A stretch of DNA of 17,236 nt from Calditrichia bacterium (GCA_037381445.1 JARRQT010000034.1:1-17236), one strand, 5' to 3'. Numbered from the stretch's first letter, positions 1-17,198 are shown. The notes: generated from the letters alone by a model not told the origin. Program-made: numbers and translations.

Positions 1-54
1 GAGAATTCTCTGATAATTATTTCTGAACCGGTTTCGGGCCGGAACAGAGGGATA

Positions 55-1269
55 TCAGATACGGGCTTTCAATTTGGGCAGATCCGGCTCCGCTCCCAGA
101 TCAGCGGCGATTTCCTGCGTTTTCCTGCGGCTCAGGTTCAGCAGATCATCCTGAGAAAACAGCCTGCGGCCGGAAGCCGATTTGGCGGACATCATCCGTT
201 CCGTGCAGCTATAGCAAGGGTCCACGGCCGCCAGGGTGATGGCGACGTCGGCCACCTGCTGACCGATACAGGAGGCGTGAAAAGACGGAATATTGATGTA
301 GCTGGGTGCCCGTACCTTCACTCTCTCCGGGTAATTGGTGCCGTTGGAGCGCACGTAGTGGATATCCTCTCCCCGCGGTGCTTCGTAGCGCCCGATTCCC
401 TCGCCGGGCGGGACTTCCTTCACTTTCAGGAGAAAATCGCCTTTAGGAATCAGATCAATAGCCTGCCGCAGAATTTTTATGGATTCCAGGACTTCCAGCA
501 CCCGCACCAGAAATTTGGCGTAGACATCGCCGCTGTTTAACGTTACAACGCTCCAGTCGAGATACGGGTAAGCGGCATATGGCTCATCCCGCCGCACGTC
601 GATATCCACACCGGAAGCCCGGGCGGTTGGTCCCACCACGCAATAATCGATGGCATCCTTTTTCTTCAATATTCCCACGCCGCCCAGTCGCGCTTTGAGG
701 ACCGGGTCGTCCTGTACGGCCTCCGCGAGCATTTTTATTTTGGGTTCCAGTTCATCAAGGGTTTTGCGGAGGGCAGGAAAATTTCTGTCATCCAGATCCC
801 TTCGGACGCCGCCAACTTTCAGCATGCCGCAGCTCTGGCGATTGCCGGTGAGCAGTTCCATCATATCCAGGATTGGCTCCCGGTACTTCCAGGCCCACAT
901 AAAAACCGTGTTATACCCGATAAAATGGCCTGCCAGACCTGCCCATAACAGATGGCTGTGAATGCGTTCAATCTCGCCCAAAATGGTGCGGATGTATTTC
1001 GCACGTTCCGGAATATCAATCTGCAGGATGTCTTCCACCGCATGGCAAAAACATACCGTATGGGTGATGGAACAAATGCCGCAGATTCGCTCCACCAGAA
1101 AAACAATCTGGTCATAGGTTTTTTGCTGGGCAAGCAGTTCAATACCTTTATGGATATATCCTATATTGACATCAATATCCACAACAGTTTCGCCTTCCAC
1201 CGTCAGAAGAAAATTTTCCGGTTCATCCTGCAGCGGGTGGAATGGTCCAATGGGAATAACTGAACGCAT
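55..1269 (-). CDS. Group 4 [NiFe]-hydrogenase large subunit (NuoD/EchE/MbhL/HycE-like)
   Basis: N-terminal IPIGPFHP...GYIHKGIE (NuoD family). L1 motif ERICGICSITH and L2 motif DPCYSCTER carry all four Ni-ligating Cys. YEAPRGE motif; 46-aa C-terminal extension after the L2 Arg; RBS AAGGAG upstream. Confidence 0.93.
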   Translation of the reverse strand: MRSVIPIGPFHPLQDEPENFLLTVEGETVVDIDVNIGYIHKGIELLAQQKTYDQIVFLVERICGICSITHTVCFCHAVEDILQIDIPERAKYIRTILGEIERIHSHLLWAGLAGHFIGYNTVFMWAWKYREPILDMMELLTGNRQSCGMLKVGGVRRDLDDRNFPALRKTLDELEPKIKMLAEAVQDDPVLKARLGGVGILKKKDAIDYCVVGPTARASGVDIDVRRDEPYAAYPYLDWSVVTLNSGDVYAKFLVRVLEVLESIKILRQAIDLIPKGDFLLKVKEVPPGEGIGRYEAPRGEDIHYVRSNGTNYPERVKVRAPSYINIPSFHASCIGQQVADVAITLAAVDPCYSCTERMMSAKSASGRRLFSQDDLLNLSRRKTQEIAADLGAEPDLPKLKARI

Positions 1270-1336
1270 TAAAAACTCCTTGAATTATAGATAGCTTACC
1301 TGTTTATGAAGACGAATATCATCAGGCTGATGAAGA

Positions 1337-1903
1337 TTATGTCTTCGCATCGCTTTTGGCGGGAGTTGTTTCGTTTGCTGATTCTTCCAGCTCGCCGAAG
1401 AAGCTGATTTTGGGAATCAGACCGTGCTTTTCCTTGAATTTCCGGATATCAAAGTCCTTGCGGAAAGGGAATTCGTTATCCTCCAGAAATTCAGCTTTTA
1501 CCAGGCGCTTCAGATTGGGATGGCCTTCAAAATGAACACCCAGAATGTCGTGAATCTCCCTTTCAATCCACAGGGTGCCGGGAATGATCGAAACCAGGGA
1601 ATCCAGTGTGGGGTCATCGCGCGGCGCAATGGTTTTCACGGTGCAGATGAATCCGTGGCGGTCGATGGTAAAATGATATAGAACCTCAAAACCTTCCCGC
1701 ACATCGATTCCGGTAGCGATGGAAAATTTGGCGCCCATTCCCCGGAACAGCGTGTGGGCAATTTCTTTCAGGTTTTCCCGCGGGACCCGGATATAAACCC
1801 GCCGTGGCGAGGCCTGCTGGATCTCGCAGGAAATTTTATAGAATTGTTTAAACTCTTCAATAAATTCGGGAATACTCATTTTTTCCATACTTTTTTTATC
1901 CAT
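1337..1903 (-). CDS. NuoC/EchD/MbhK-like subunit of the group 4 hydrogenase
   Basis: Complex I 30 kDa signature ATGID...FEVLYHF...WIEREIHDILGVHFEGHPNLKRL...FPFRKDF. The start could be a few codons downstream (Met at 1888 or 1879). Confidence 0.9.
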   Translation of the reverse strand: MDKKSMEKMSIPEFIEEFKQFYKISCEIQQASPRRVYIRVPRENLKEIAHTLFRGMGAKFSIATGIDVREGFEVLYHFTIDRHGFICTVKTIAPRDDPTLDSLVSIIPGTLWIEREIHDILGVHFEGHPNLKRLVKAEFLEDNEFPFRKDFDIRKFKEKHGLIPKISFFGELEESANETTPAKSDAKT

Positions 1904-1938
1904 GTGATTTTTTCGCGATTCTATAAAAAAATATGAAT

Positions 1939-2373
1939 TCAGATTTTCCCAAGCGCCTTCACCAGCGCCATAATCATGGTCTCCGGTTTGGGAGGGCAGC
2001 CCGGGACGTAGACAAACACGGCATTGGGATCAATCTCGCGGATGACCTTATCCACCGGCCCGGCAACGCTATAGGCATCTTTGAAAATGCCCATTGTGCA
2101 AGCGCAGGCGCCGATGCAGGCCACCACGCAGGGTTTGGGCACCTGCCTGTACACTTCCTGTAAGCGGGGCCTGATATGATATGTCACCGGACCGCTGACC
2201 AGAAGCACATCGGCATGCCGGGGGCTTACCACCAGCTTGATTCCGAACCGTTCCGCGTCAAAACGGGGCGTCAGGCAATCCAGTATCTCAATATCGCAAT
2301 TGTTGCAGCCGCCGGTGCCGACATGGTAAACCCAGGGGGATTTTTTAAGCCATCGCGTATTTAAACCTGGCAT
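1939..2373 (-). CDS. Group 4 hydrogenase small subunit (NuoB/EchC/MbhJ/HycG-like), one [4Fe-4S]
   Basis: GGCNNCDIE (CxxC, hydrogenase-type rather than the NuoB CC), SPRHADVLLVSGPV, IGACA, VPGCPPKPE. Confidence 0.93.
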   Translation of the reverse strand: MPGLNTRWLKKSPWVYHVGTGGCNNCDIEILDCLTPRFDAERFGIKLVVSPRHADVLLVSGPVTYHIRPRLQEVYRQVPKPCVVACIGACACTMGIFKDAYSVAGPVDKVIREIDPNAVFVYVPGCPPKPETMIMALVKALGKI

Positions 2374-2503
2374 AATAGGACTCCGTAACTTTCAGAAAAA
2401 AATCAGAGTTTAGTAAAGAATTTGGGGATGAAATCCAAATTGTATGGTGAACGACCATCAGAATTTTAAGTGACTTGTTCAGAAATTGGACCCTGATTTT
2501 AAA

Positions 2504-3439
2504 TCAATATCCCAAAAACATCAATACCATTCCCGCCGCTGCGATGAGGGTCACCCATCCCCAGAAAAATTTCACCGCCTGATCGATCCGCACGCGGGGG
2601 TTGGTGTTTTTGACCAGCACCACGACAGTGATAATCAACAGATATTTCAGGACCGACCAGAGAATCCCCCAGCCTTCCAGCCTTGTGCCGCTCCAGAAGA
2701 GACTGATGATAAACCACGGCACCACCACGTAAAGCATCGCATTCATGATCTTGTACAGACCTAGCGCCGGCCCGGAATATTCCAGAAAGGGACCTTCCAT
2801 GATCTCGCATTCCGCTTCACTGATGTCGAACGGCACCTGGGCCAGTTTGGCCTGCAGGCAGACCAGTGCAACCACAAATGCCGCCGTCATGGAAATATGA
2901 TTGATCAGAGCGCCGTGTATTTCCTGATACTGAATAATCTCTCCCAGCGACAGGCTGCCAACCTTGAACAGAACCGTCGCTACCGCAATAATAAAGGGCA
3001 GCTCATATCCCATCATTAATTTGATTTCGCGGCTGGCCCCCAGTGCGCTTATGGGATTACCGGAAGCAAAACCGCCCCACACAATGCTCAGCGGCGGCAG
3101 GACCATCAGGTAGATGATAACTATCACATCCCCCACAAAATGAATATCGGGATTCAGGTTTATGATGCCAAGCATGGTTGCGAGAAGTGTCGTGGCAGCC
3201 ACCCCAATCAGGGGCGCCAGCAGAAATCCGGCACGCCGGGCAGCGGAGGGAATGAGCAGCTCCTTGTTCCAGAGCTTAAAAATGTCGTAAAACGGCTGAA
3301 AGAAGGGAGGCCCGACCCGCCACTGAACCAGGGCGGTGACTTTCCGGTCTACCCAACTGGTGATGAGTCCGAACGCGGCCGTAAAAAGGAATCCCGGAAA
3401 AATCAGGAAAGCAATCAGGTATTGGGTAATATTTTCCAT
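2504..3439 (-). CDS. Membrane subunit NuoH/EchB/HycD/MbhM-like
   Basis: DRKVTALVQWRVGPP...QPFYDIFKL, GASRE, PFDISEAECEIMEGPFLEYSG and PRVRIDQ motifs; about 8 hydrophobic segments. Confidence 0.93.
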   Translation of the reverse strand: MENITQYLIAFLIFPGFLFTAAFGLITSWVDRKVTALVQWRVGPPFFQPFYDIFKLWNKELLIPSAARRAGFLLAPLIGVAATTLLATMLGIINLNPDIHFVGDVIVIIYLMVLPPLSIVWGGFASGNPISALGASREIKLMMGYELPFIIAVATVLFKVGSLSLGEIIQYQEIHGALINHISMTAAFVVALVCLQAKLAQVPFDISEAECEIMEGPFLEYSGPALGLYKIMNAMLYVVVPWFIISLFWSGTRLEGWGILWSVLKYLLIITVVVLVKNTNPRVRIDQAVKFFWGWVTLIAAAGMVLMFLGY

Positions 3440-3564
3440 TTAATCTTCCTTAAAAAATCCTGGATATTCTGTAAATGATGAAAGGAGCAATGCATGTTGT
3501 TTTGGATGCCTAATGAAGAGTGGCAGGGAAACATGATGTATCCGGACTGTTCACATCCGCGCTG

Positions 3565-4320
3565 TTAATAAAAATGATATCTCACATCCTCCAGCGCTTT
3601 CAGATTATGTTTGGCGCGGTCGTGCTCGGGATCCAGATTTAGTACATTTTTAAAGCTCTCGATGGCCTTGTCCAGTTCGCCTTTTTTATAATAGGCAACC
3701 CCCAACTGGAAATGTGCCGGCGCATCCGACGCGTTGTCAGCTACGACTTTTTCGAAATTGATAATGGTTGAATCAATATTTCCCAGTTGCGCGCATGCCT
3801 CACCCAGATGATAATAGGCGATTGTAAATTCAGGATTCATTTCCAGCAGCCGGCGAAAAGTGTCACAGGTCTCCTGCAACTGGCCGTGGTGATAGTAGCA
3901 GATGCCCAGCCAGTAGTAGGCCATCAGAAAATCATGATCGATGCGAAGGGTCCGCTGAAACTGTTCAATCGCTTCCGAAATCTGCGCCTTTCGGTACAGC
4001 GCCAGTCCCATGCCGTAATAGGCGCCGGCCTGATTTGGTTTCATCTCGATACTTCGCTGATACTGTTCGATGGCCTCATCCAGCTTGCCAAGCCGGTAAA
4101 ACAGGTTTCCGATATGCAGGGCGATTTCAGGCTTGCGGTTCATGGCATCGGCCTTCATAAATTCCTCAGCGGCCTCCTCAATCTGGCCTTCGCTTTCAAA
4201 AAGTGTGGCTTTCTCAAGCAATTTTTCGTAGTCCCTGACTCCCTCTTTGAGGGGGGTCCCGCATTCCTTGCAGAAATTATGGGTCTTGGGGTTACGGGTT
4301 TGACATACCGGACAGATCAT
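3565..4320 (-). CDS. Zinc-ribbon + tetratricopeptide repeat protein
   Basis: N-terminal CPVC-x10-CKECG, then about 6 repeats of ~34 aa with TPR consensus (e.g. AYYGMGLALYRKAQISEAIEQFQRTLRIDH, AHFQLGVAYYKKGELDKAIESFKNVLNLDP); RBS AAGGAG. Confidence 0.88.
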   Translation of the reverse strand: MICPVCQTRNPKTHNFCKECGTPLKEGVRDYEKLLEKATLFESEGQIEEAAEEFMKADAMNRKPEIALHIGNLFYRLGKLDEAIEQYQRSIEMKPNQAGAYYGMGLALYRKAQISEAIEQFQRTLRIDHDFLMAYYWLGICYYHHGQLQETCDTFRRLLEMNPEFTIAYYHLGEACAQLGNIDSTIINFEKVVADNASDAPAHFQLGVAYYKKGELDKAIESFKNVLNLDPEHDRAKHNLKALEDVRYHFY

Positions 4321-4414
4321 TTATCTCTCCTTCCTCATTTATTTGCCATCATCTTTTAAGACTCGGATTTGGGTTTAGCCTCATGGAAGCAAAGCATAGT
4401 TGATAATTAAAACC

Positions 4415-4900
4415 TTACATACGCCGTATTTTTGAATGGGCAACAATCCGGCTGCCGATAAAGGTGGCCGGAACCTCGGTCGGGGTCAGTTCCACAAATT
4501 GCAGGGCGCCGGCAGGGCAGGCCGATACGCAGCGCGGCTGTTTTCCCTGCTGCACGCGGTCAATGCACAAGTCACATTTTGGGGAAACATGCCGCGTGAA
4601 TTCATCTCCGATTACGCCAAACGGGCAGGCCAGGGAGCAGGACTGGCATCCAACGCAGAGCATGTTTGAGCGCGTGACATACCCGTCTTCATCCTGAAAT
4701 AACGCGCCGGTGGGGCAGGCTGCCATACACGCCGGATTCAGGCAGTGACGGCAGTTTGCCGGTACCAGCGCAATGCGTTCCACGGCACTGTGAACAAGGT
4801 TGCTCTGGTTATGATGTCCATAGTGGCAGGCTGCGGAGCAGCTCCGGCACCCAATACAAAGATCCAAATTGACAACAATTCTTTTTTCTATGTTTGGCAT
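4415..4900 (-). CDS. 4x[4Fe-4S] electron-transfer protein (HycB/CooF/DmsB family)
   Basis: 16 Cys in the DmsB/HycB arrangement (CIGCRSCSAAC; CRHCLNPACMAACP; CVGCQSCSLACP; CDLC...CVSACP). Start placed at ATG 4900 (MPNIEK), which has GGGGAG upstream, rather than 4930. Confidence 0.9.
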   Translation of the reverse strand: MPNIEKRIVVNLDLCIGCRSCSAACHYGHHNQSNLVHSAVERIALVPANCRHCLNPACMAACPTGALFQDEDGYVTRSNMLCVGCQSCSLACPFGVIGDEFTRHVSPKCDLCIDRVQQGKQPRCVSACPAGALQFVELTPTEVPATFIGSRIVAHSKIRRM

Positions 4901-4976
4901 GAACTTTACTCCCCGCAGGCAATTAATCATAGGGTTTGGTATGAATATCCCGGTTTATGCAGCCGGGCAGACATTC

Positions 4977-6776
4977 TTACTCATTGGTGCGGATTTTGGG
5001 ACACCAGAAGTAATATTCACGGTTATGCTCTGCGAACTCACCGGACATCATTCGACGGGCAGGAAGGTAGTGGGAGTTCGGAACCAGAACATTCGGAGGT
5101 AAATTCTCGTCGATTTGGCTTTTGAACACTATCCGCTTCCCATTATGGGTTATGTTAAAATATTGTTCGTTTTCTACCTTTAGCGCCGCGGCTTCTTCCG
5201 CTGAAAGCTTCATTTGCTTATTTTCATGTTCAACCGCGGCCCACGATGAAAACTGAGTCAACTGCCCATCGCCATAATGTATCTGATGATCGGCGGGAAT
5301 CAGCCATTTTCCGGGTGCGGCAGTCTGTCTCTCCAGTTGCTGACGGTAATATGAAAATTCCTCCTGTAAGGCCGTTGTCCAGTCCTTCCGGTACGGTTCC
5401 ACTCCGTTTCCGGCCAGCGTGATATTCTTTTCCGAAAGTTTCTGGTTGAGAAGGTAGGTTAAATGGGAAAGCGATTGGGCCGAACCGATGGGTGTTTTGA
5501 CTGCCGGAGACCCCTGGGACTGCCAGGGCAAAAAGCTTGTGCGGAGGTCCATCTGTTCGTACAAATATGCCTGCGCCAATAGGGCCTTTGTATTTTCCGG
5601 GAACTGGTCTTTGACCAGCGAGCTGATAATCCACGAAGATCCGTCGGGCCAGTCCATTACTCCCGGATAAGCGCTCTCCGGATTCCACCCGATTGCATAA
5701 ATATATTGATATTTATTCTGCAGAAGGTGGTAGAGCAGGGGCTTTCTTCCGATGTCAAGCTTCTTAAATGCGTCCCTGGATAACTCCTCGATTGCATACA
5801 GATTGCCGTCCGTGTACAAGGGGATAAAGGAACTGTCGCTAATCTGTGCTAGGGCCGCGCATGCCATGCCTGACAGATAGCTTCCGGCGGCATTATAAAG
5901 ATGGGTGGAATAAAAGATGGCGGATTTCTGATTGGAGGCTAGCACCTCTGCAATCCGTTTCAGCGAAACCAGTTGGGCCGGTGGAACGAATTCGGTAATA
6001 ATGGGAAGCACATCTTTCCGGATAAAGTCACCGAGCCAGATCTGTTCATCGCTCAGCCGGCTGCTTTTCTTTAATTCCAGTGCGGTATTCAGCAGGTAAA
6101 ACAGATGCAGCGGTTCATGATGCGGAGTATTCTGAATGTGTATATTGGAAAACCAGCTGGTTTTGCCGGGAATTGGATTTATGGTATAGAAACCGTTTTT
6201 CCGAAAAGCATATTTCGCTTTCAGCATGTGCCGGCTGAGGACCGGCTGTTTTGTGAAAACATCCCCCATGTATAATACATGATTCATATTTTTGAGCAGA
6301 CGGGCGTCGTCGCAGCGGGAGAAGGAGAAGGGAACATCGAGGAGCGCCCGGAACAGATGGCGGTCGGCCGGCATGATGAAATCGATGGCCTGCAGTTTCA
6401 TGTTTACGGCGAATTCCAGGATGGTACGGATATCGTGCAGTGACAGCAGGGGATTGGCAAGAATGGCCATTGGAGAAGGGAAGGATTCCTTTTTCAGATT
6501 GGCCGCAATATTCTCAAAAATAAGTTCCGTGATTTGCGGCTGGAGACTGCCGTTGGATTTGTAATACGACCGGCCCAGCCGCTGCGGGTGAGAGAGCAGT
6601 TCGTAGGCAAAATGTCCCCGCGGGCAGAGGGCACCTTCATTCACGGGATTCTCGTAATCGTAATCAATTGCGTCCCGGGTCCGCCCCGAAAAGACGACAT
6701 CATCCTGGCCCTTAAGTATTTTGAAGCGGCAGCCGACAGCACAGAAGGGACATGTGACCTGAAATTCTTGTTTCAT
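4977..6776 (-). CDS. Molybdopterin-oxidoreductase-family (FdhA/NuoG C-terminal-like) protein with N-terminal [4Fe-4S], probably non-catalytic
   Basis: TCPFCAVGC...VNEGALCPRG...HPQRL N-terminal FeS domain. Degenerate LAQAYLYEQ (cf. LPAAxxxEK) and C-terminal LSAEEAAALKVEN...IDENLPPNV (cf. bis-MGD-binding barrel). No Cys/Sec at the expected Mo-ligand position. Confidence 0.75.
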   Translation of the reverse strand: MKQEFQVTCPFCAVGCRFKILKGQDDVVFSGRTRDAIDYDYENPVNEGALCPRGHFAYELLSHPQRLGRSYYKSNGSLQPQITELIFENIAANLKKESFPSPMAILANPLLSLHDIRTILEFAVNMKLQAIDFIMPADRHLFRALLDVPFSFSRCDDARLLKNMNHVLYMGDVFTKQPVLSRHMLKAKYAFRKNGFYTINPIPGKTSWFSNIHIQNTPHHEPLHLFYLLNTALELKKSSRLSDEQIWLGDFIRKDVLPIITEFVPPAQLVSLKRIAEVLASNQKSAIFYSTHLYNAAGSYLSGMACAALAQISDSSFIPLYTDGNLYAIEELSRDAFKKLDIGRKPLLYHLLQNKYQYIYAIGWNPESAYPGVMDWPDGSSWIISSLVKDQFPENTKALLAQAYLYEQMDLRTSFLPWQSQGSPAVKTPIGSAQSLSHLTYLLNQKLSEKNITLAGNGVEPYRKDWTTALQEEFSYYRQQLERQTAAPGKWLIPADHQIHYGDGQLTQFSSWAAVEHENKQMKLSAEEAAALKVENEQYFNITHNGKRIVFKSQIDENLPPNVLVPNSHYLPARRMMSGEFAEHNREYYFWCPKIRTNE

Positions 6777-6922
6777 TATCTGTTACCTTGCCATTTTATT
6801 CGGTATGGGAAAACCAAATGCGGGAAAATCTTTTTTGTTGAATGGTATGAATATTTTTTTGACGGATTGATTGAAAAATTGTTCTTCATTCCGCTGGCAT
6901 CATAAAGGATTAAAATGCCATA

Positions 6923-7738
6923 TCAGCCGAAAACATCCGGATATTTCTGAATTTTTGCATAATTCATGTCAGGCCCGTCTTTGCACAGATAGTAAGGTCC
7001 GATATTACATCGCCCGCAGATTCCCATGCCGCAGCTCATATTCCGGTTCATGGAGAGATAGATTTGCTCCGGCTTAAATCCCACGCTGAGCAGTTTCATG
7101 GTGACAAATTTCAGCATGATTTCCGGGCCGCAGGAGACGACAAAGCTGTTGTCAAGATCAATATCAGTATGGTTGAGCAGTTCTGTTACAAGGCCGACGC
7201 GTCCTTCCCAGTTTCCGTTGGCGCTGTCTACGCTGACCTCCATATCAACTTTGGGCAGATTCCGCCACTCCTCATACTGACGGCGGAAACTTAACTCCGA
7301 AGGATTCCGGGCGCCGTATTTAATGGAAACCCGCTTGAATTTTTCCAGATTGTGGAAGAGAGCATACAGCAGGGCCCGCAAAGGCGCCAGACCGACGCCG
7401 CCCCCTACAACCAGAATTTCCCTGCCCTCAAATTTGTCAATCGGATAGCCTTTCCCGAAAGGCCCCCGCAGTCCCACCTTATCACCGGGATTTAAATCGT
7501 GAACCGCTTCGGTGACCCGGCCGGCCCGCAGGATAGTGATTTCCATATTTTCCGGTTTGTAAGGCGAGGAAGAGGGGGTGAAGGGCGCTTCTCCCACACC
7601 CGGAACGGTGAGCTGCATGAACTGCCCCGAGCGAAACAAAATCGGTTCCGGCGGCTGCAGCACCAGTGTCTTGATGGTCGGCGTTTCGGTAATTACATCC
7701 AGTACTCTGGTATCCAAAGGTTGATATACATTTTTCAT
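6923..7738 (-). CDS. FAD/NAD(P)-binding [2Fe-2S] oxidoreductase (AsrB/HyhG/FlxA/PyrK-like)
   Basis: GQFMQL...GVGEAPF, GLRGPFGKGYP, VGGGVGLAPLR, SCGPEIM, MSCGMGICGRC...LCKDGP. Confidence 0.92.
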   Translation of the reverse strand: MKNVYQPLDTRVLDVITETPTIKTLVLQPPEPILFRSGQFMQLTVPGVGEAPFTPSSSPYKPENMEITILRAGRVTEAVHDLNPGDKVGLRGPFGKGYPIDKFEGREILVVGGGVGLAPLRALLYALFHNLEKFKRVSIKYGARNPSELSFRRQYEEWRNLPKVDMEVSVDSANGNWEGRVGLVTELLNHTDIDLDNSFVVSCGPEIMLKFVTMKLLSVGFKPEQIYLSMNRNMSCGMGICGRCNIGPYYLCKDGPDMNYAKIQKYPDVFG

Positions 7739-7803
7739 GGAATGTCTCTTGTCTCTGTTTTGCTGAATTCTATTAGCTCAATTGTCCGCAACTTTATGGT
7801 GAA

Positions 7804-8856
7804 TTAGATAAGATCCGGAGTTTCCTTGAGGACAACCCGTTTTTCCAGTTCCATCAGTACATCGCGCAAATCAATGTTTCCCATGCACCCCTCCACGCAG
7901 CGCCCGCAGCCGGTGCAGGCCTGCAGACCGAAATTGGTAACGAAGGAATTGAACTTATGGTAAAAACGGTTTTTAAACCGTTCGGCCAGCCGCAAGCGAG
8001 GCGTCAATCCTCCCGCCATACGGGAATACCCCCCGAAGAAGCACGAATCCCACACTTTAATGCGTTCGAATTTATCCTCAACAGGCTGGTCATACATCAA
8101 AAAGCAGTGGCAGGTGGGGCAGATTTGCGTGCAGGTCCCGCATTCCACACAGGTTTTGCTCAGTTCTTCCCAGATTCCGGAATCGAGATGCCGTTCGATG
8201 GAATGTTTGTGATCTTCAAAATAGCTATATTTCTCATTTTGTTTTTCCACCTGCTCGGTAACCATTTCCCGCTGCCTCTCCCGTTCCAGTATCATGGAGT
8301 CCGGGGCCTCCTCCAAATTTATAAAACTGGATTCCAGAATTTTTTTCCCTTTTTCCGAACAGATTTCAATCAGAAGAAGCCCATTGATTTGAGACAGGTT
8401 CAGGTCAAAATCCGCTTTGGGATAAGGCTTATAATTCATCAGTGTGCAGTAGCAATGGGGTCCGGCGCTGCGGCAGTCGGTTGAAATGATGATATTCTTT
8501 TCCCTCGCTTCCACGTAATATGGCTCGGGGAATTCACCTTCCGCGTATACCTTGTCCATTATTTTCAGGGCGTGAATATCGCAGGCCTTGGGACCGATGA
8601 TGACCACCGGCTGCACCTCATCAGTTGTCTCGGGTCCGGGATATCGGCTGACTTGTTTCAGCGGCGGAGTATAGAAGGTCTTCAACGGCAGTGTTGTCCG
8701 TAAGGGAGGGTAAAACCATAATTCATCCTTCCATCCGTCGCGCGCCACAGGCTCGAAATAATAATGATTTTCAAATTCGATGGGAATGAACAGCGGATAC
8801 TCATGATTGAGTCTGGCAAGGCTGCGGAATAGATTCTCTCTGGAAATCTGATACAT
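7804..8856 (-). CDS. [4Fe-4S] protein (AsrA/HyhB/FlxB-like)
   Basis: IGPKACD, C...CYC, CVECGTCTQICPTCHCF, WDSC, RFKNRFYHKF, CTGCGRCVEGC; RBS GAGG. Confidence 0.9.
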   Translation of the reverse strand: MYQISRENLFRSLARLNHEYPLFIPIEFENHYYFEPVARDGWKDELWFYPPLRTTLPLKTFYTPPLKQVSRYPGPETTDEVQPVVIIGPKACDIHALKIMDKVYAEGEFPEPYYVEAREKNIIISTDCRSAGPHCYCTLMNYKPYPKADFDLNLSQINGLLLIEICSEKGKKILESSFINLEEAPDSMILERERQREMVTEQVEKQNEKYSYFEDHKHSIERHLDSGIWEELSKTCVECGTCTQICPTCHCFLMYDQPVEDKFERIKVWDSCFFGGYSRMAGGLTPRLRLAERFKNRFYHKFNSFVTNFGLQACTGCGRCVEGCMGNIDLRDVLMELEKRVVLKETPDLI

Positions 8857-8925: not shown

Positions 8926-9381
8926 TCAGGCGAAATTCAGTCTTTCCAGCAGATACCAGAAATCGTGAATCATGATCGTCATAAGTTTGGAAACTTCCGG
9001 AGAAAGTTCATCTCCCCATTCATTCCATTTGATTCTGAATGCCAGAACTTTCAGGTCATATTGGCGCAGGACCGGGATTTCATGAAACAGCGTTTTGATT
9101 TCAATCCCGTTCATGCCGATAATTCTTATAGAATCATTTATTTCACTAACAGAAAGATAACAGTATTCACCTGCCGGGCAATCCATGAAACCGGAAGAGA
9201 TAAACAGTATTTTTTTCTCTCCTTGGTATAGCGGAATGAGATTCAATATATCGTTGCCGATAGAAATCAACCGGAACGGGAAATTCGAATAATTTTTTTC
9301 CAATTGGCTGACAATGTAAAGCCCTGCTGCTTCATCCTGGAAGCCTGCATTTCCCAAACCAGCAATAAGTGTTGGTCGCAT
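8926..9381 (-). CDS. Hydrogenase maturation endopeptidase-like protein (HycI/HybD family), divergent
   Basis: N-terminal LIAGLGNAGFQDEAAGLYIV motif and C-terminal WGDELSPEV motif; located between two hydrogenase operons. Start placed at ATG 9381 (MRPTL). The usual second Asp and His metal ligands are not recognisable. Confidence 0.75.
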   Translation of the reverse strand: MRPTLIAGLGNAGFQDEAAGLYIVSQLEKNYSNFPFRLISIGNDILNLIPLYQGEKKILFISSGFMDCPAGEYCYLSVSEINDSIRIIGMNGIEIKTLFHEIPVLRQYDLKVLAFRIKWNEWGDELSPEVSKLMTIMIHDFWYLLERLNFA

Positions 9382-9922
9382 GGGATTCTTCCATTTTGAT
9401 TGAATATAGCTCCGCCCCGTCACTTACAGGGGTAGTGAAAAAAGAAAAGAATACAATGAAATTCACAAGCCAGAAAAGATGCAGAGATTCCGGATGACCC
9501 GCTTGCAGCAAGCAACCGGTTTTTAAAAGCACACGACAAAAGACAACATTCTATAAATTCAATCGGATTCTCGGTGAATCCGGTGATTTTTCTTTAATTG
9601 CTTACATAATCGTAAAATGCCAGGTATCTGTATGCAAAACCAGGGTATCTTACATGATGAGGAGTGTGAAAGAGCGGGGAGTGCCGAAAACCGGTCGTGT
9701 TAGCATTATGCTGCCAATCCTTTACCAAATCAGCGGGGAGGGGTGCAGGAGATTCTTTTCGCGTATTTGATGTCGCTTTCTTATCCGATATCAAGAGAAA
9801 GTTCTCTATTTAATTATCTTATTTTATTCGGACAGCCAAGCTGCTTCGTAAAAAATCTCAACAAAATACATAATTCACAATGCAGAAAAAATTAACAATG
9901 CAATTTATTTAACTAAAAATAC

Positions 9923-9940
9923 TTGTTAATTATGTAACAA
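9923..9940. promoter_or_regulatory. Rex-like operator
   Basis: TTGTTAA-TTAT-GTAACAA versus Rex consensus TTGTGAA-N4-TTCACAA. It is near-palindromic and lies just downstream of the putative promoter at 9949-9976. Confidence 0.6.
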
Positions 9941-10084: not shown

Positions 10085-11386
10085 CTATTTAAATTCTATT
10101 TCCACAAGATGGACGGCGCAGGAGATACAGGGGTCATAAGCGCGGGCAACCATTTCCAGGTTGAGGCGAAGTTTCTCTTCCGGCAGCTTCATGGAGTTTT
10201 CCACTGCGGTACGGAGATCTTTTTCGGTGTTTGCCAGGTTCTGGGCGGTAGGGGTGATAACATCCGCTTCCACCAGAATTCCGTTATCATCATATTCATA
10301 GGAATGATACAATGTACCTCGCGGAACCTCAATGGCGCCGACGCCTTTGCCTGCTTTGGGCGTAATCTTGATGGGCGCTTCCTGCTCAACGCCCTCTTCC
10401 AGCAACTGGTCAATCAAAATGATCGCTCTTTCCAGGGAGTGGATAAGCTCTATCAGTTGAGCGGTATTGTTGTGAAGGATGTTGGTTTCCGGCATATTGG
10501 GCAGCAGCCGTTTCTGGACATCCTGGGCGGCTCCCCGGATATGCTGATAATTAAGGTTTAATCTTGCCAGTGAACCGGTCATGAAAGGCTCATTCGCGAA
10601 CAGGGACTGCTTTGCGTGGGAATGGGAGACGACCCGTTCATGGCAGACCTTTCGATAATCTTCCACGGGAAACTTATCGCCCAAAGAAGTCTGAATGACA
10701 TCACCGAGATAGCTGTAGCGAAGTTCGCGCGGTTCAAGCGCCGTATAGACAGTAGGTGTGGTAGCGAAGTCCGGCAACGGCAGCAGTTTCTCATAGACAT
10801 CCACAGTAACCAGGGCATCTTCAAGACCTTTCTCAATCTGGGATTTCAGATCGATGAGCTGCTGTCGGGTGGGCACCAGACCGAAGCCGCCGATGATGGG
10901 ATTGATGGGATGTACGGCACGTCCCCCAATTAATTCTTGAATGGTATTTCCAAGCTTTTTCAGGCTGAGGGCGATGGACACTTCCCTGGGATACTGGGAT
11001 GCCATGGAGATGACGCCGTCGAAACCCAGCAGGTCGGGCAGGGCAAGGGCATAGACATGAAGTGCATGGCTTTCAATCATGGAGCCGTGCAGCAGGAGGC
11101 CCCGCAGCAGGTAAGTCTGCCTTGACACCTGAACGCCGAATGCTTTCTCCGTGGCCATCTGGGAAGCCAGCAAATGATCGGCGGAACAAATAGCGCAGAT
11201 GCGGCTGACGATTCCGGCAACTTCTTCGTAATGCTTTCCCACCAGAAGTTCTTCATAGAAACGGGACCCCTCGTAGATATCCATGTTGACCTTGGAGATG
11301 GCTCCGTTTTCAATTTCCACATGAATGCCGCCGTGACCCTCAACCCTTCCGAGATGATCAATCGCGATTTTTTTATTTATTTTCAT
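10085..11386 (-). CDS. hyhL: Group 3b [NiFe]-hydrogenase large (alpha) subunit
   Basis: RVEGHG, L1 SRICAICSADH, EVPRGTLYH, TPTAQN, L2 DPCISCAVH plus a 7-aa tail. ATG at 11386 has GGAGG upstream (the ORF track start at 11392 is a TTG). Overlaps the small-subunit stop. Confidence 0.93.
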   Translation of the reverse strand: MKINKKIAIDHLGRVEGHGGIHVEIENGAISKVNMDIYEGSRFYEELLVGKHYEEVAGIVSRICAICSADHLLASQMATEKAFGVQVSRQTYLLRGLLLHGSMIESHALHVYALALPDLLGFDGVISMASQYPREVSIALSLKKLGNTIQELIGGRAVHPINPIIGGFGLVPTRQQLIDLKSQIEKGLEDALVTVDVYEKLLPLPDFATTPTVYTALEPRELRYSYLGDVIQTSLGDKFPVEDYRKVCHERVVSHSHAKQSLFANEPFMTGSLARLNLNYQHIRGAAQDVQKRLLPNMPETNILHNNTAQLIELIHSLERAIILIDQLLEEGVEQEAPIKITPKAGKGVGAIEVPRGTLYHSYEYDDNGILVEADVITPTAQNLANTEKDLRTAVENSMKLPEEKLRLNLEMVARAYDPCISCAVHLVEIEFK

Positions 11387-12155
11387 GCTCAATTTCCTCC
11401 ATTAGTTTTTCCGGCATCCACGCAGGTGCGGCATAAATCTGCATTTTCCTGATAATCTCCTCCGGCTTGATCCCTTTCCGCTCGAACATCTTGACTTCGG
11501 CATCATAATGAACTTCCTCAATGGGGCCATGGCAGCCCGTGCAGGGGACATTGTGCGAGGGACAGCGCGCGCCGCAGCCTGCAACTGTTAAGGGACCGCA
11601 GCAGACTTCATTTTTGTAGACGATCTGGCACACATTCTCTTTCATCTTGCACTCGGAGCATACGGAGAAATTGAGTATCTCCGGTATGTCCCCATGCAGG
11701 AAAGAGGCCATCATCTGCAGGAACTGCTCCTTCTCAATGGGGCACCCGGGCAGATTATAATCCACTTTCACGAAAGAGCTCAACGGCTGGGCCGCCTTGC
11801 TCTCAATGAAACGGACGTTATCGCCGTACACTTCTTCCAGCATTACTTCACGGGGAACCTCATTTTTCATGGCCGGGATGCCTCCCCAGACGGCACAGGT
11901 GCCTAGTGCGACTAATATTTTAGAACGTTGGCGTATCTTTTTCAATGCTTCTATATCACGAACCTGCGCAACGGACCCTTCAACCAGGGCAATATCAAGT
12001 CCTATCTCTTCATTATTCTGGCTTTTTGCCATCTCCCAGTCCTGAATATCTACTGCATTGGCTAAGTCCACCAGATGATCCTCACAATTCAGGATGACCA
12101 GTTGGTCCCCGGCGCAGGAGGTTAATCCGAAAATTCCGACTTTTGGTTTACTCAT
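11373..12155 (-). CDS. hyhS: Group 3b [NiFe]-hydrogenase small (delta) subunit
   Basis: GLTSCAGDQL, VEGSV, GTCAVWGG, LPGCP, VCSECK...C...CCGP...GCGARCP...CTGCHGP; no Tat signal; RBS AGGAGG. Confidence 0.92.
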   Translation of the reverse strand: MSKPKVGIFGLTSCAGDQLVILNCEDHLVDLANAVDIQDWEMAKSQNNEEIGLDIALVEGSVAQVRDIEALKKIRQRSKILVALGTCAVWGGIPAMKNEVPREVMLEEVYGDNVRFIESKAAQPLSSFVKVDYNLPGCPIEKEQFLQMMASFLHGDIPEILNFSVCSECKMKENVCQIVYKNEVCCGPLTVAGCGARCPSHNVPCTGCHGPIEEVHYDAEVKMFERKGIKPEEIIRKMQIYAAPAWMPEKLMEEIEHENK

Positions 12156-12167
12156 TCTCTAATCCTC

Positions 12168-13064
12168 CTAAATCATTTCGGGTAAATTCATCACATCCCA
12201 GTAAGTAAACACAGGACCGTCTGTGCAAACTTTTTTATTACCAATCTCGCAGTGCCCGCATTTTCCGATACCGCATTCCATGCGGCGCTCCAGAGACATC
12301 AGAATGCGGTCTTTCGAGAATCCCATATCCAGGCACTTGCTCAAGACAAATCTGTAGAAAATTGGGGGGCCGACGACCACTGCATGGGTCCTGCGCACGT
12401 CCAGCTCTTTGATATTATCAAACAGATCAGTCACCATGCCGAAATTGCCACGCCATTCCGGCGTTTTGGGTGACAGGGCCGGTTTTTCCACAATCAGATG
12501 GCATTCCGCATCCGAGCGCAGGGATAACGCTTCCAATTCACTGCGGAATAACAGAAAATCGGGATACCGCGTTCCGTACAGCAGGATGATGCGCTCATAG
12601 TCCTGCCGGTTATCCAGCGCGTACAGTAAGATGGAGCGTAACGGCACCATACCCAGACCACCGGCAACGATCAGCAGATTATCACCCTTCATTTCTTCCA
12701 CCGGAAAACCGTTTCCGAAAGGTCCGCGAAGGCCAATCAGGTCGTTGGGTTTCAGATGATAAAGGGCATTGGTGACGCGTCCCGCGCGGCGGATACACAT
12801 CTCGATGACGCCCCGGCGAGTGGGTGTGGAAGAGATGGAGATGGGCGATTCTCCGACGCCCAGCACCGAGACCTCCATAAATTGACCGGGTTTATATTGA
12901 AATTTAGTGTTCAGGTTTGCATCTTCGAAACGGAAACGGAACAGGTGATTGTCCTCCACCATCGGGTCCATGCTGATAATTCTTGCCAGCTCGGGCTTAT
13001 ATGGATTCGTTCCCATTTCGTATGGAAAACACGGCTGGTTCGACAACATTTTATTCGCTAACAT
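12168..13064 (-). CDS. hyhG: Group 3b hydrogenase gamma subunit (FAD/NAD(P)-binding, [2Fe-2S])
   Basis: PGQFM...GVGESPISISS, GLRGPFGNGFP, AGGLGMVPLRS, ERRMECGIGKCGHC...VCTDGPVF; GGGAGG RBS; overlaps the beta-subunit end. Confidence 0.92.
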   Translation of the reverse strand: MLANKMLSNQPCFPYEMGTNPYKPELARIISMDPMVEDNHLFRFRFEDANLNTKFQYKPGQFMEVSVLGVGESPISISSTPTRRGVIEMCIRRAGRVTNALYHLKPNDLIGLRGPFGNGFPVEEMKGDNLLIVAGGLGMVPLRSILLYALDNRQDYERIILLYGTRYPDFLLFRSELEALSLRSDAECHLIVEKPALSPKTPEWRGNFGMVTDLFDNIKELDVRRTHAVVVGPPIFYRFVLSKCLDMGFSKDRILMSLERRMECGIGKCGHCEIGNKKVCTDGPVFTYWDVMNLPEMI

Positions 13065-14091
13065 AGCTGCCCTCCCGTATTTTGGTTAATACTTCCACGA
13101 CATCGATTCCTGCCGGACAGGCATTTATGCAGCGTCCGCAGCCCACACAACTGGGTTCCCCGTACTGCTCAACCATTCTGAATTGTTTATGGTAGTAACG
13201 GTTTTTCACGCGTTCGGCTCGTTCCTCGCGGAAATTGTGACCGCCGGCGACCAGCGCATAATCTTTGAACAGACAGGCATCCCACTGCTTGATGCGACGT
13301 CCGCTTTTGGCATCCAGATTAAGTTCATCATAAATGTTGAAGCAATAGCAGGTGGGGCAGACCATTGAACAACTGCCGCAAGTCAGGCAGCGTTCTCCCA
13401 ACTCTTCCCATATGGGATTTGCCTGTTCCAGGTCGAGAATGTAAGGAAGATCATCAATATCCAGCTTGAGCTGGAAGCTTTCATTCCGCTTTTTCCGAAA
13501 ATCCAGATATTTCTTGCGATGTTCTTCTTCCACTTCTTCGAACAGATGCTGCCGCTCGGTGACAATATCATCACCCAGACTGGTTCCGATGGCCACAAGA
13601 TAATCATCGCCGATATCCGACAACGCCAGATCGAATCCGTCTTCCGTGTAATCCGTATGCATCGATTTGCAGAAACATTTCTCATCGGGCATACAGCTCA
13701 ATCCGATGATGGCGGTATTTCCGCGGCGTTTCGCATAGTACGGATCTTTATATTGTTGATTGAAGACGACATCCAGAATTTTTATTCCATGAATGTCACA
13801 AGGATGTAAACCAAAAAGAATGCGTTTCTTCTCGCCGTCTTCAATGACTTCTTCAAAGCCTTTTTCGACATGAAAATTAAAAATCACTTCTTTTGGTTTG
13901 GTAAGGTACTTTTTGGGGGGGATAATTGTGCGAAGATATTCCCAGGCCATTTCGCGGGGATCGGTCATTACATCGAAAACATACACCCCTTTTTGTTCAG
14001 GTTTTTCTTTGGGAATGATGACTTCGCCAAAATCCCGCAAGCTCGACAGGAATTCTTCCACATTCGCTTTTGGGAGTCTGGTTACTTTCAT
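13051..14091 (-). CDS. hyhB: Group 3b hydrogenase beta subunit ([4Fe-4S], AsrA-like)
   Basis: FGLHPCD, CFC, CLTCGSCSMVCPTCYCF, WDAC, CVGCGRCINACPAGID; first gene of the canonical beta-gamma-delta-alpha order. Confidence 0.92.
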   Translation of the reverse strand: MKVTRLPKANVEEFLSSLRDFGEVIIPKEKPEQKGVYVFDVMTDPREMAWEYLRTIIPPKKYLTKPKEVIFNFHVEKGFEEVIEDGEKKRILFGLHPCDIHGIKILDVVFNQQYKDPYYAKRRGNTAIIGLSCMPDEKCFCKSMHTDYTEDGFDLALSDIGDDYLVAIGTSLGDDIVTERQHLFEEVEEEHRKKYLDFRKKRNESFQLKLDIDDLPYILDLEQANPIWEELGERCLTCGSCSMVCPTCYCFNIYDELNLDAKSGRRIKQWDACLFKDYALVAGGHNFREERAERVKNRYYHKQFRMVEQYGEPSCVGCGRCINACPAGIDVVEVLTKIREGSYVSE

Positions 14092-17161: not shown

Positions 17162-17198
17162 TCGTTAAATGATTCACTAGTATATTCATCCAATTATA
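17162..17198 (-). promoter_or_regulatory. Putative -10 element and Rex-like operator of the vor operon
   Basis: Minus strand TATAAT at 17193-17198, followed by TAGTGAA-TCAT-TTAACGA at 17162-17179, upstream of the RBS. No -35 recognised. Confidence 0.5.

Follow-up and report, generated by a model that had tools for sequence, protein, structure and literature searches.

We analyzed a 17,236-nucleotide stretch of DNA from a Calditrichia bacterium (GCA_037381445.1 JARRQT010000034.1:1-17236; hereafter, the window), which is the start of contig C34 in an assembly of 5.1 Mb that is 92% complete, and found at positions 55..8856 nine open reading frames (ORFs), all on the minus strand and spaced by 35-146 bp, that we regard with high confidence as the front half of a Hun-type cluster for a group 4 [NiFe]-hydrogenase. 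The cluster is real, intact, widespread, and already described from genomes. At its head lie HunA (7804..8856), an AsrA/HydB-like Fe-S protein of 350 amino acids (aa) matching PF17179 and NF040833 (TIGR02910 below cut-off), in which 14 Cys are invariant and one more nearly so among 64 sequences, and HunB (6923..7738), a 271-aa AsrB/HydG-like protein for flavin adenine dinucleotide (FAD), nicotinamide adenine dinucleotide (NAD), and [2Fe-2S] (PF00970, PF00175, PF10418). These are followed by an FdhF-like molybdopterin-family Fe4S4 protein of 599 aa (4977..6776; PF04879 only), by HunC, a HycB/CooF-like 4x[4Fe-4S] protein with all 16 Cys (4415..4930, probable start 4900), and by a tetratricopeptide repeat (TPR) protein (3565..4320) with an N-terminal CxxC...CxxC pair that was found in 5 of 22 aligned rows. 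The remaining four are HunD, a NuoH-like membrane anchor (2504..3439; PF00146); HunE, a NuoB-like small subunit with conserved C23, C26, C90, and C126 (1939..2373); the NuoC-like HunF (1337..1903; PF00329); and HunG (55..1269), a NuoD-like group 4 [NiFe] large subunit with RICGIC and DPCYSC motifs and a C-terminal extension. The best solved relatives of HunG are MbhL (E = 4e-89) and HycE (E = 4e-79), and the closest large subunits (84% identity) come from Calditrichia records. ORF calls together with Pfam and NCBIfam assignments agreed with the gene identities, order, and nickel motifs given in a preliminary description of the sequence, and its placement in group 4, as opposed to Ehr, Mbx, or complex I, was borne out by both CxxC nickel motifs, the four-Cys small subunit, the NuoH-like and antiporter subunits, and a maturation protease.

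That description had ended the cluster at position 55, whereas it continues on contig C2 of the same assembly. Window positions 1-595 overlap the end of C2 (G000:C2:36455-37049) at 95.6% nucleotide identity with 26 mismatches, and 20 of the 23 mismatches in coding sequence fall at third codon positions; an overlap this similar, with mostly third-position changes, suggests two variants (strains) of one locus in the bin. C2 carries the remainder of the cluster (locus L081, 17400-9418, minus strand), comprising MrpA-like (623 aa) and MrpD-like (490 aa) antiporter-like subunits that retain the charged motifs of antiporters, MbhD/E, MnhB, C, E, F, and G, a NuoI/HycF-like protein of 203 aa, and two maturation proteases. 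L002 and G082, both closely related, carry the whole cluster as an uninterrupted run. On the strand opposite to the hun proteases and downstream of them, L081 2160-7467 holds genes for a histidine kinase, a response regulator, and roadblock-like and small GTPase proteins, the last two MglA/MglB-like as judged from sequence.

Relation to described hydrogenases

Hun was described by Glass et al. (bioRxiv 10.1101/536078) as a 16-subunit complex (hunA-P) combining AsrA/B-like HunAB, a group 4g HunG with CGIC and CYCC motifs, and Mrp subunits, and with, optionally, a 4Fe-4S molybdopterin-domain gene lying between hunB and hunC; their text places HunG in 4g but distant from other 4g enzymes, reports hun in cultured Kosmotoga, and proposes ferredoxin as the electron donor. 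With the letter-to-gene mapping taken from that text, the published order A-B-C-D(NuoH)-E-F-G-antiporter H-O-P(NuoI-like) was found with seven core genes in the window and nine on C2, and the shared parts are the AsrA/B-like pair at the cluster head, the Fe-S protein, the NuoH-like, small, NuoC-like, and large subunits, the Mrp-type subunits, and the NuoI-like last gene. The optional gene occupies window 6776-4977, no AsrC-like ORF was seen among the scanned window ORFs, and the published hosts are of the same kinds as those of the related loci found here (Omnitrophota, Bacteroidota). The window differs in its host, likely a member of the Calditrichota, in adding the TPR gene, which their section on Hun does not mention, and in having DPCYSC where Hun is said to have CYCC, the latter being a point against membership. 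Among 80 same-order relatives (the best 80 of 553 confirmed relatives, at 55-84% identity, representing the near clade only, to which all locus counts here refer), the motif was CYCC in 51, CYSC in 27, and cut in 2, and CYSC rows formed two separate branches among CYCC rows in a quick tree built without a proper outgroup, from which we claim no direction of gain or loss. Because CYCC typifies most clusters of this type but not all, we classify the window as a Hun member of the CYSC, FdhF-like/TPR-bearing variety. With regard to the reference HunG (RXG63129) and Kosmotoga, no Atribacterota or Thermotogota/Kosmotoga name appeared among the 120 of 6585 matches listed.

Comparable clusters have been reported under other names. 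An "enigmatic" group 4 hydrogenase of Saganbacteria RX5A, with Mrp subunits, asrA, asrB, a cooF-like gene, and a molybdopterin oxidoreductase, was treated in the text as Mbh-like (PMC6349859), and an Elusimicrobia "Mbh-Mrp-oxidoreductase type", its function given as unknown (bioRxiv 10.1101/765248), is probably related to Hun. Both have in common with the window asrA, asrB, the cooF-like gene, Mrp subunits, and an unclassifiable molybdopterin oxidoreductase with one 4Fe-4S domain; the texts of these papers leave the donor unknown and the molybdopterin protein a possible enzyme, whereas we argue that the protein is cofactor-less. These two papers and Glass et al. thus already contain the architecture, molybdopterin-family gene included, and novelty of the arrangement is not supported. 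No Hun purification or structure was found in the literature searched, subscription journals lying mostly outside that search. HydDB lists formate, CO, or ferredoxin as donors for group 4 subgroups and 4g as uncharacterised and putatively ferredoxin-coupled (PMC5037454), Mrp-linked 4g enzymes are treated as ferredoxin-coupled elsewhere (PMC8542988), and Caldithrix abyssi is described without a group 4 enzyme (PMC5317091).

Among characterized systems, Pyrococcus furiosus Mbh (group 4d, PDB 6cfw) has the closest solved large subunit and the same Mrp-type MbhD/E, MnhB, C, E, F, and G, whereas Hun has two large antiporter-like subunits. Mbh has no flavoprotein arm, and it uses ferredoxin as listed in HydDB. 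E. coli formate hydrogenlyase (FHL; group 4a, PMC9474812) has FdhF-like, HycB-like, and HycF-like parts in common with Hun as well as the same DPCYSC motif, and the extra Cys quartet of HycF is conserved in 54-55 of 57 rows of the Hun HycF-like protein; in Hun, however, the NuoC and NuoD parts are separate genes, an AsrAB-type module and a full Mrp set are added, and the FdhF-like protein of the window lacks the Sec/His pair and probably the cofactor. The comparison with an FHL-like chassis made in the preliminary description therefore holds for the soluble arm, with its HycB-, HycF-, and FdhF-like parts, and fails for the membrane arm, which is Mrp/Mbh-like. The Fe-S plus FAD/NAD(P)/[2Fe-2S] pair is homologous to the beta and gamma subunits of group 3b sulfhydrogenase (PDB 9nez) and to AsrAB, which serve soluble enzymes.

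Synteny of asrAB, HunC, and the FdhF-like subunit

The same gene order recurs across the 80 loci. Both asrA and asrB were found upstream of the core in 66 of them, the asrB end lay at a contig edge in 2, 11 were cut off earlier, and 1 (L010) was an exception; the pair is a stable companion of the hydrogenase in 68 of 69 informative loci from many phyla, and in 68 of 69 it sits directly before hunC or the FdhF-like gene. Antiporter genes followed downstream in 75 of 80 loci, and the remaining 5 ended within 260 bp. The FdhF-like gene was present in only 20 of the 66 AsrAB-bearing loci, and the TPR gene in 17 of these 66 and only ever alongside the FdhF-like gene. Within the phylum, the large subunit was found in 17 of 86 genomes, and within the family in 11 of 16 other genomes.

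Several loci depart from the common plan. In L010, the FdhF-like gene before hunC is reduced to its C-terminal domain (2887-3699), which adjoins gyrA, and asrAB are missing there, the result of a rearrangement or a misassembly. L048 (4491-9129) has an insertion of ~4.6 kb that splits off a partial small-subunit copy, L039 (7023-9601) has a 2.6-kb insertion inside the cluster, asrA of L037 (6005-6842) is in two pieces, and L053 ends within the first antiporter gene after 12497. The NuoI/HycF-like gene directly follows the large subunit in L032, L055, and L078, which have an additional antiporter-like gene, and Margulisbacteria-type L019, L060, and L071 have a reduced membrane arm without MnhE, F, and G matches. 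In six Planctomycetota loci (L025, L030, L033, L044, L049, L057), PAS histidine kinases and response regulators precede the cluster upstream of asrA, adjoining another hydrogenase large subunit in three cases.

Upstream of hun, the window holds a hydrogenase maturation protease gene (8926..9423, probable start 9381, minus strand; TIGR00072 above cut-off), a 661-bp AT-rich gap, a complete group 3b hydrogenase (hyhBGSL) that is distinct from Hun and has a HydB/HydG pair of its own (10085..14091, minus strand; left out of the preliminary description), and vorD/A/B-G-like 2-oxoacid:ferredoxin oxidoreductase genes with beta and gamma fused in a 484-aa product (window 17201-14353). Seven family genomes had enough upstream DNA for comparison (G077, G078, and G083 are apparently the same records as L001-L003). 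The 3b cluster was kept in three, where hyhBGSL and the protease stand between vor and hun, and was missing in four, while asrAB stayed with hun in all seven, and HunB and HyhG fell on separate branches of the tree. The synteny, the retention of the pair without 3b, and the separate branches place asrAB with the group 4 cluster and set it apart from group 3b beta/gamma subunits. An origin of asrAB as a duplicate of the adjacent hyhBG was rejected, the identities being 33% and 38% and the branches separate. The protease at 8926..9423 probably serves the 3b enzyme, as 2 of 3 relatives with the 3b cluster have it and 0 of 4 without that cluster do.

The FdhF-like protein gave profile matches to formate dehydrogenases and a model (mean predicted local distance difference test score 93.7) with the full four-domain fold of the formate dehydrogenase/Nap/NuoG type and one predicted [4Fe-4S] cluster (C9, C12, C16, C51), the Cys of this proximal cluster being conserved. 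In alignments, however, the catalytic Cys/Sec-His pair of formate dehydrogenase H is replaced, with a conserved Asp138 at or beside the metal-ligand position; the proteins are ~20% identical across lineages, and the C-terminal domain is lacking in the Margulisbacteria-type copies of L020, L022, L024, L060, and L071. Searches for MoaC and for the C-terminal domain of MoaA, in which the controls were positive, found neither in the genome itself nor in 11 Hun-bearing family genomes, one of them a single contig (0 of 12, 62-99% complete; 0 of the 7 of high quality); both MoaA and MoaC were present in 10 of 18 non-family genomes carrying the gene. Other PF00384 matches of the genome look NuoG-, ActB-, or HydA-type, with no formate dehydrogenase motif in the stretches inspected. 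Because the catalytic pair is replaced and MoaA/MoaC were found in 0 of 12 genomes, the FdhF-like protein is most likely cofactor-less in this Calditrichota family; since MoaA/MoaC were not found in any Hun-bearing family genome, these Calditrichota may lack molybdoenzymes altogether, unlike nitrate-reducing Caldithrix abyssi.

In FHL, FdhF passes electrons to HycB and then HycF (PMC9474812), and the preliminary description had placed the FdhF-like protein correspondingly in a serial wire between AsrAB and the hydrogenase. In each of the 20 rows that have the FdhF-like gene, HunC retains its full set of 16 Cys, whereas in rows without the gene the ligands of cluster C15/18/21/128 were lost in 26 of 44 and those of C109/112/124/25 in 7 of 44; the two other clusters were intact in 64 of 64 rows. 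By inspection of trees, the losses fall in several separate branches, kin not being independent. Since HunA and HunB persist where cluster C15/18/21/128 has decayed, they are not generally wired through the FdhF-like subunit, which, being missing from 46 of 66 AsrAB loci, behaves as a side branch. To judge from these patterns, it is probably not part of the main wire, and the FdhF-like and TPR proteins would be accessory, optional structural parts and possibly a second electron port. In Bacteroidales L051, L062, L068, L069, L072, and L073, HunC has lost the ligands of two clusters and keeps only two.

The HunB flavoprotein and a candidate Rex-type operator

The FAD segment, GGGxG and CGP motifs, and four [2Fe-2S] Cys of HunB were conserved in 67 of 67 sequences, as was Asp171 at the predicted adenosine-ribose position that distinguishes NAD from NADP. 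The solved relatives of HunB are sulfhydrogenase 1 gamma (the best, E = 2.9e-54), PyrK, NqrF, and cytochrome b5 reductase. Coenzyme switches D239T, S920D/R932S, and S223D have been tabulated for proteins of this fold (PMC5817062). In alignments, Asp171 matches the Asp of NAD-specific PyrK and, allowing for a small gap, that of NqrF, whereas sulfhydrogenase 1 gamma has Thr-Arg around that place. The three switch positions are presumably equivalent to Asp171. HyhG of the neighboring 3b enzyme has Glu at the position of Asp171, and for this reason that enzyme may likewise prefer NAD(H).

A Rex-operator-like palindrome at 9923..9940, with one mismatch to the TTGTGAA-N4-TTCACAA type consensus (taken from PMC5317091, which cites Ravcheev et al.), lies in the 661-bp gap, which likely holds the cluster promoter. 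A promoter and terminator scan, not used as evidence, gave five promoter-like minus-strand sites between 10038 and 9902 and 21 terminator-like matches against 16.0 ± 4.5, near chance. Rex represses NADH-oxidising genes at low NADH (PMC5317091), and the genome encodes Rex; together with the candidate upstream operator, this would place hun in a Rex regulon. The 5.1-Mb genome has 2 sites with ≤1 mismatch, of which the palindrome alone is intergenic, and a site with 0-2 mismatches was present in the corresponding gap of 7 of 7 family genomes. More widely, 23 of 57 loci have a Rex-like box with ≤2 mismatches no more than 400 bp from asrA, in many cases 24-39 bp ahead of its start, and a rex gene adjoins asrA in 12 of 80. 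When 24 sites were chosen on the CRP-type core alone, the free positions proved to be Rex-type (outer T in 24 of 24, outer A in 19, inner A in 18, inner T in 19), which disfavors a CRP/FNR reading of the palindrome. The word "Rex" is absent from the main text of Glass et al.

Other Rex-related features were observed. A Rex-like site with 2 mismatches at window 17162-17179, by the vor genes, recurs in G082 and G084. In Bacteroidales loci of the L051, L062, and L064 type, rex and asrA point in divergent directions, an operator lies ~210 bp upstream, and hyp maturation genes follow; in L050, L063, and L065 (~4900-5660), the place that rex occupies in other Bacteroidales is taken by a gene whose sequence suggests a Crp/Fnr-like regulator, and no good Rex box was seen.

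Because the conserved HunB motifs, the NAD-type Asp171, and the upstream Rex-type operator point the same way, we consider it likely, on these sequence features, that NAD(H) rather than the published ferredoxin is the physiological partner of Hun. The nicotinamide link suggested in the preliminary description is thus the best reading, narrowed to NAD(H) by Asp171 and its alignments.

Electron donor, direction, and energetics

In the mechanism that we propose, NADH would be oxidised at the HunB flavin and H2 evolved at the NiFe site of HunG, electrons passing from FAD to the [2Fe-2S] cluster of HunB, the HunA clusters, the two never-lost HunC clusters, the HycF-like HunP, HunE, and finally the NiFe site. 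Ions flowing in through the Mrp arm would push the uphill NADH-to-H2 step, and Rnf or respiration would recharge the gradient; the FdhF-like protein, devoid of a Mo/W cofactor, would be docked at the opposite end of HunC in the manner of FdhF on HycB. Energetics computed from textbook potentials showed that, at NAD+/NADH ratios of 1-30, H2 can be formed from NADH only up to about 2-66 Pa, in agreement with the early caveat that the reaction is unfavourable except at very low H2, and that one inward ion at 150 mV raises the reachable H2 to about 0.8-23 kPa. The reverse reaction, H2 to NAD+, pays for one ion only near ≥1 kPa H2. Because both the energetics and Rex, which points to induction at high NADH, favor it, ion-driven NADH oxidation was chosen as the main role: the enzyme is probably reversible, disposal of NADH as H2 is its most likely main role, and NADH oxidation is, given an NAD(H) partner, the direction that we moderately favor. 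The whole reading, a single membrane complex that oxidises NADH and evolves H2 driven by inward ion flow, we hold to be about evenly balanced between right and wrong.

Several points weigh against it. The join of C34 to C2 connects variants that differ by 4.4%, and a gradient spent on H2 is costly in a genome that also encodes Rnf, the 3b hydrogenase, and three further [NiFe] large subunits. As regards the side branch, the HunB rows that come with the FdhF-like gene group in a single branch, which makes the Fisher p of the HunC/FdhF association too optimistic, and that the first-motif HunC cluster faces FdhF is our assumption, carried over from FdnH/HycB-type proteins. No good Rex box was found near asrA in 34 of 57 loci, and across the genome the number of Rex-like sites with ≤1 mismatch (2) does not exceed that in shuffled sequence (4-7). 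The Rex site does not prove that NADH is the substrate, because Rex also controls a hydrogenase using NADH and ferredoxin together (PMC5317091). Finally, ferredoxin is the donor proposed by Glass et al., and the vor cluster, found upstream in 7 of 7 family genomes, fits ferredoxin supply.

The published model, in which reduced ferredoxin feeds HunABC, H2 is made, and ions are pumped out as in Mbh, has these vor genes in its favor, as well as MbhL as the best solved relative of HunG and a computed yield of -7 to -39 kJ/mol for ferredoxin to H2, which suffices to pump. It would, however, leave without a job the FAD/NAD site that all 67 HunB sequences keep; the solved proteins closest to HunB are nicotinamide-binding subunits, and Mbh needs no such module. 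Despite the proposal of Glass et al., the Mbh-like treatment in PMC6349859, and the HydDB entry for 4g (PMC5037454), we regard this model as less likely but still credible, including a possible hybrid form in which ferredoxin enters at an Fe-S cluster of HunA, HunC, or the FdhF-like protein and electrons go to H+ or NAD+. An energy-conserving H2:NAD+ oxidoreductase, oxidising H2, reducing NAD+, and pumping ions out, would use the same parts and gain -15 kJ/mol at 1 kPa H2 and NAD+/NADH 30, just one ion at 150 mV; we think it slightly less likely still, since the computed yield falls below 10 kJ/mol at 10-100 Pa H2 and Rex derepresses once NADH is already high, the wrong signal for making more (PMC5317091). 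That HunA/B form a separate soluble diaphorase, or a partner of the 3b hydrogenase, sulfite reductase, or Hdr, merely co-regulated with the membrane hydrogenase, has in its favor the adjacency of a 3b cluster, both here and in 3 of 7 family genomes, and the putative nature of the contact between HunA/B and the hydrogenase. Against this stand the 3b enzyme's own pair, the distinct HunB and HyhG branches, the position of asrAB directly before hunC or the FdhF-like gene in all but one informative locus, and the finding of no AsrC- or Hdr-like family, judged from sequences, among the 40 largest recurrent neighbour clusters, which together make it improbable. Least credible of all is an active Mo/W FdhF-like enzyme for formate or an unknown substrate, as in an FHL with an NAD branch: its intact proximal ligands and fold, Asp138, and the co-occurrence with MoaA and MoaC outside the family are outweighed by the absence of Cys/Sec or a catalytic His, the low identity across lineages, the missing C-terminal domain in Margulisbacteria-type copies, the lack of MoaA/MoaC in the family genomes, and the character of the genome's other PF00384 matches.

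To return to NADH oxidation driven by inward ion flow, we tentatively propose that Hun may be a complex-I-like NADH-to-H2 machine without flavin bifurcation or a ferredoxin detour. The variant in the window may then be an evolutionary intermediate, an FHL arm whose FdhF lost its cofactor and now serves as a NuoG-like scaffold or ferredoxin port alongside a more recent NADH module; the result would be an ion-coupled enzyme with three ports (NADH, ferredoxin, H2). The cluster itself is known, and what is added here is the case for NADH as donor together with the evidence that the FdhF-like protein is a cofactor-less side branch. If true, an NADH-coupled group 4 hydrogenase would correct the published ferredoxin model and would add a new reaction to the bioenergetics of a complex that is widespread in bacteria of sediment and groundwater.

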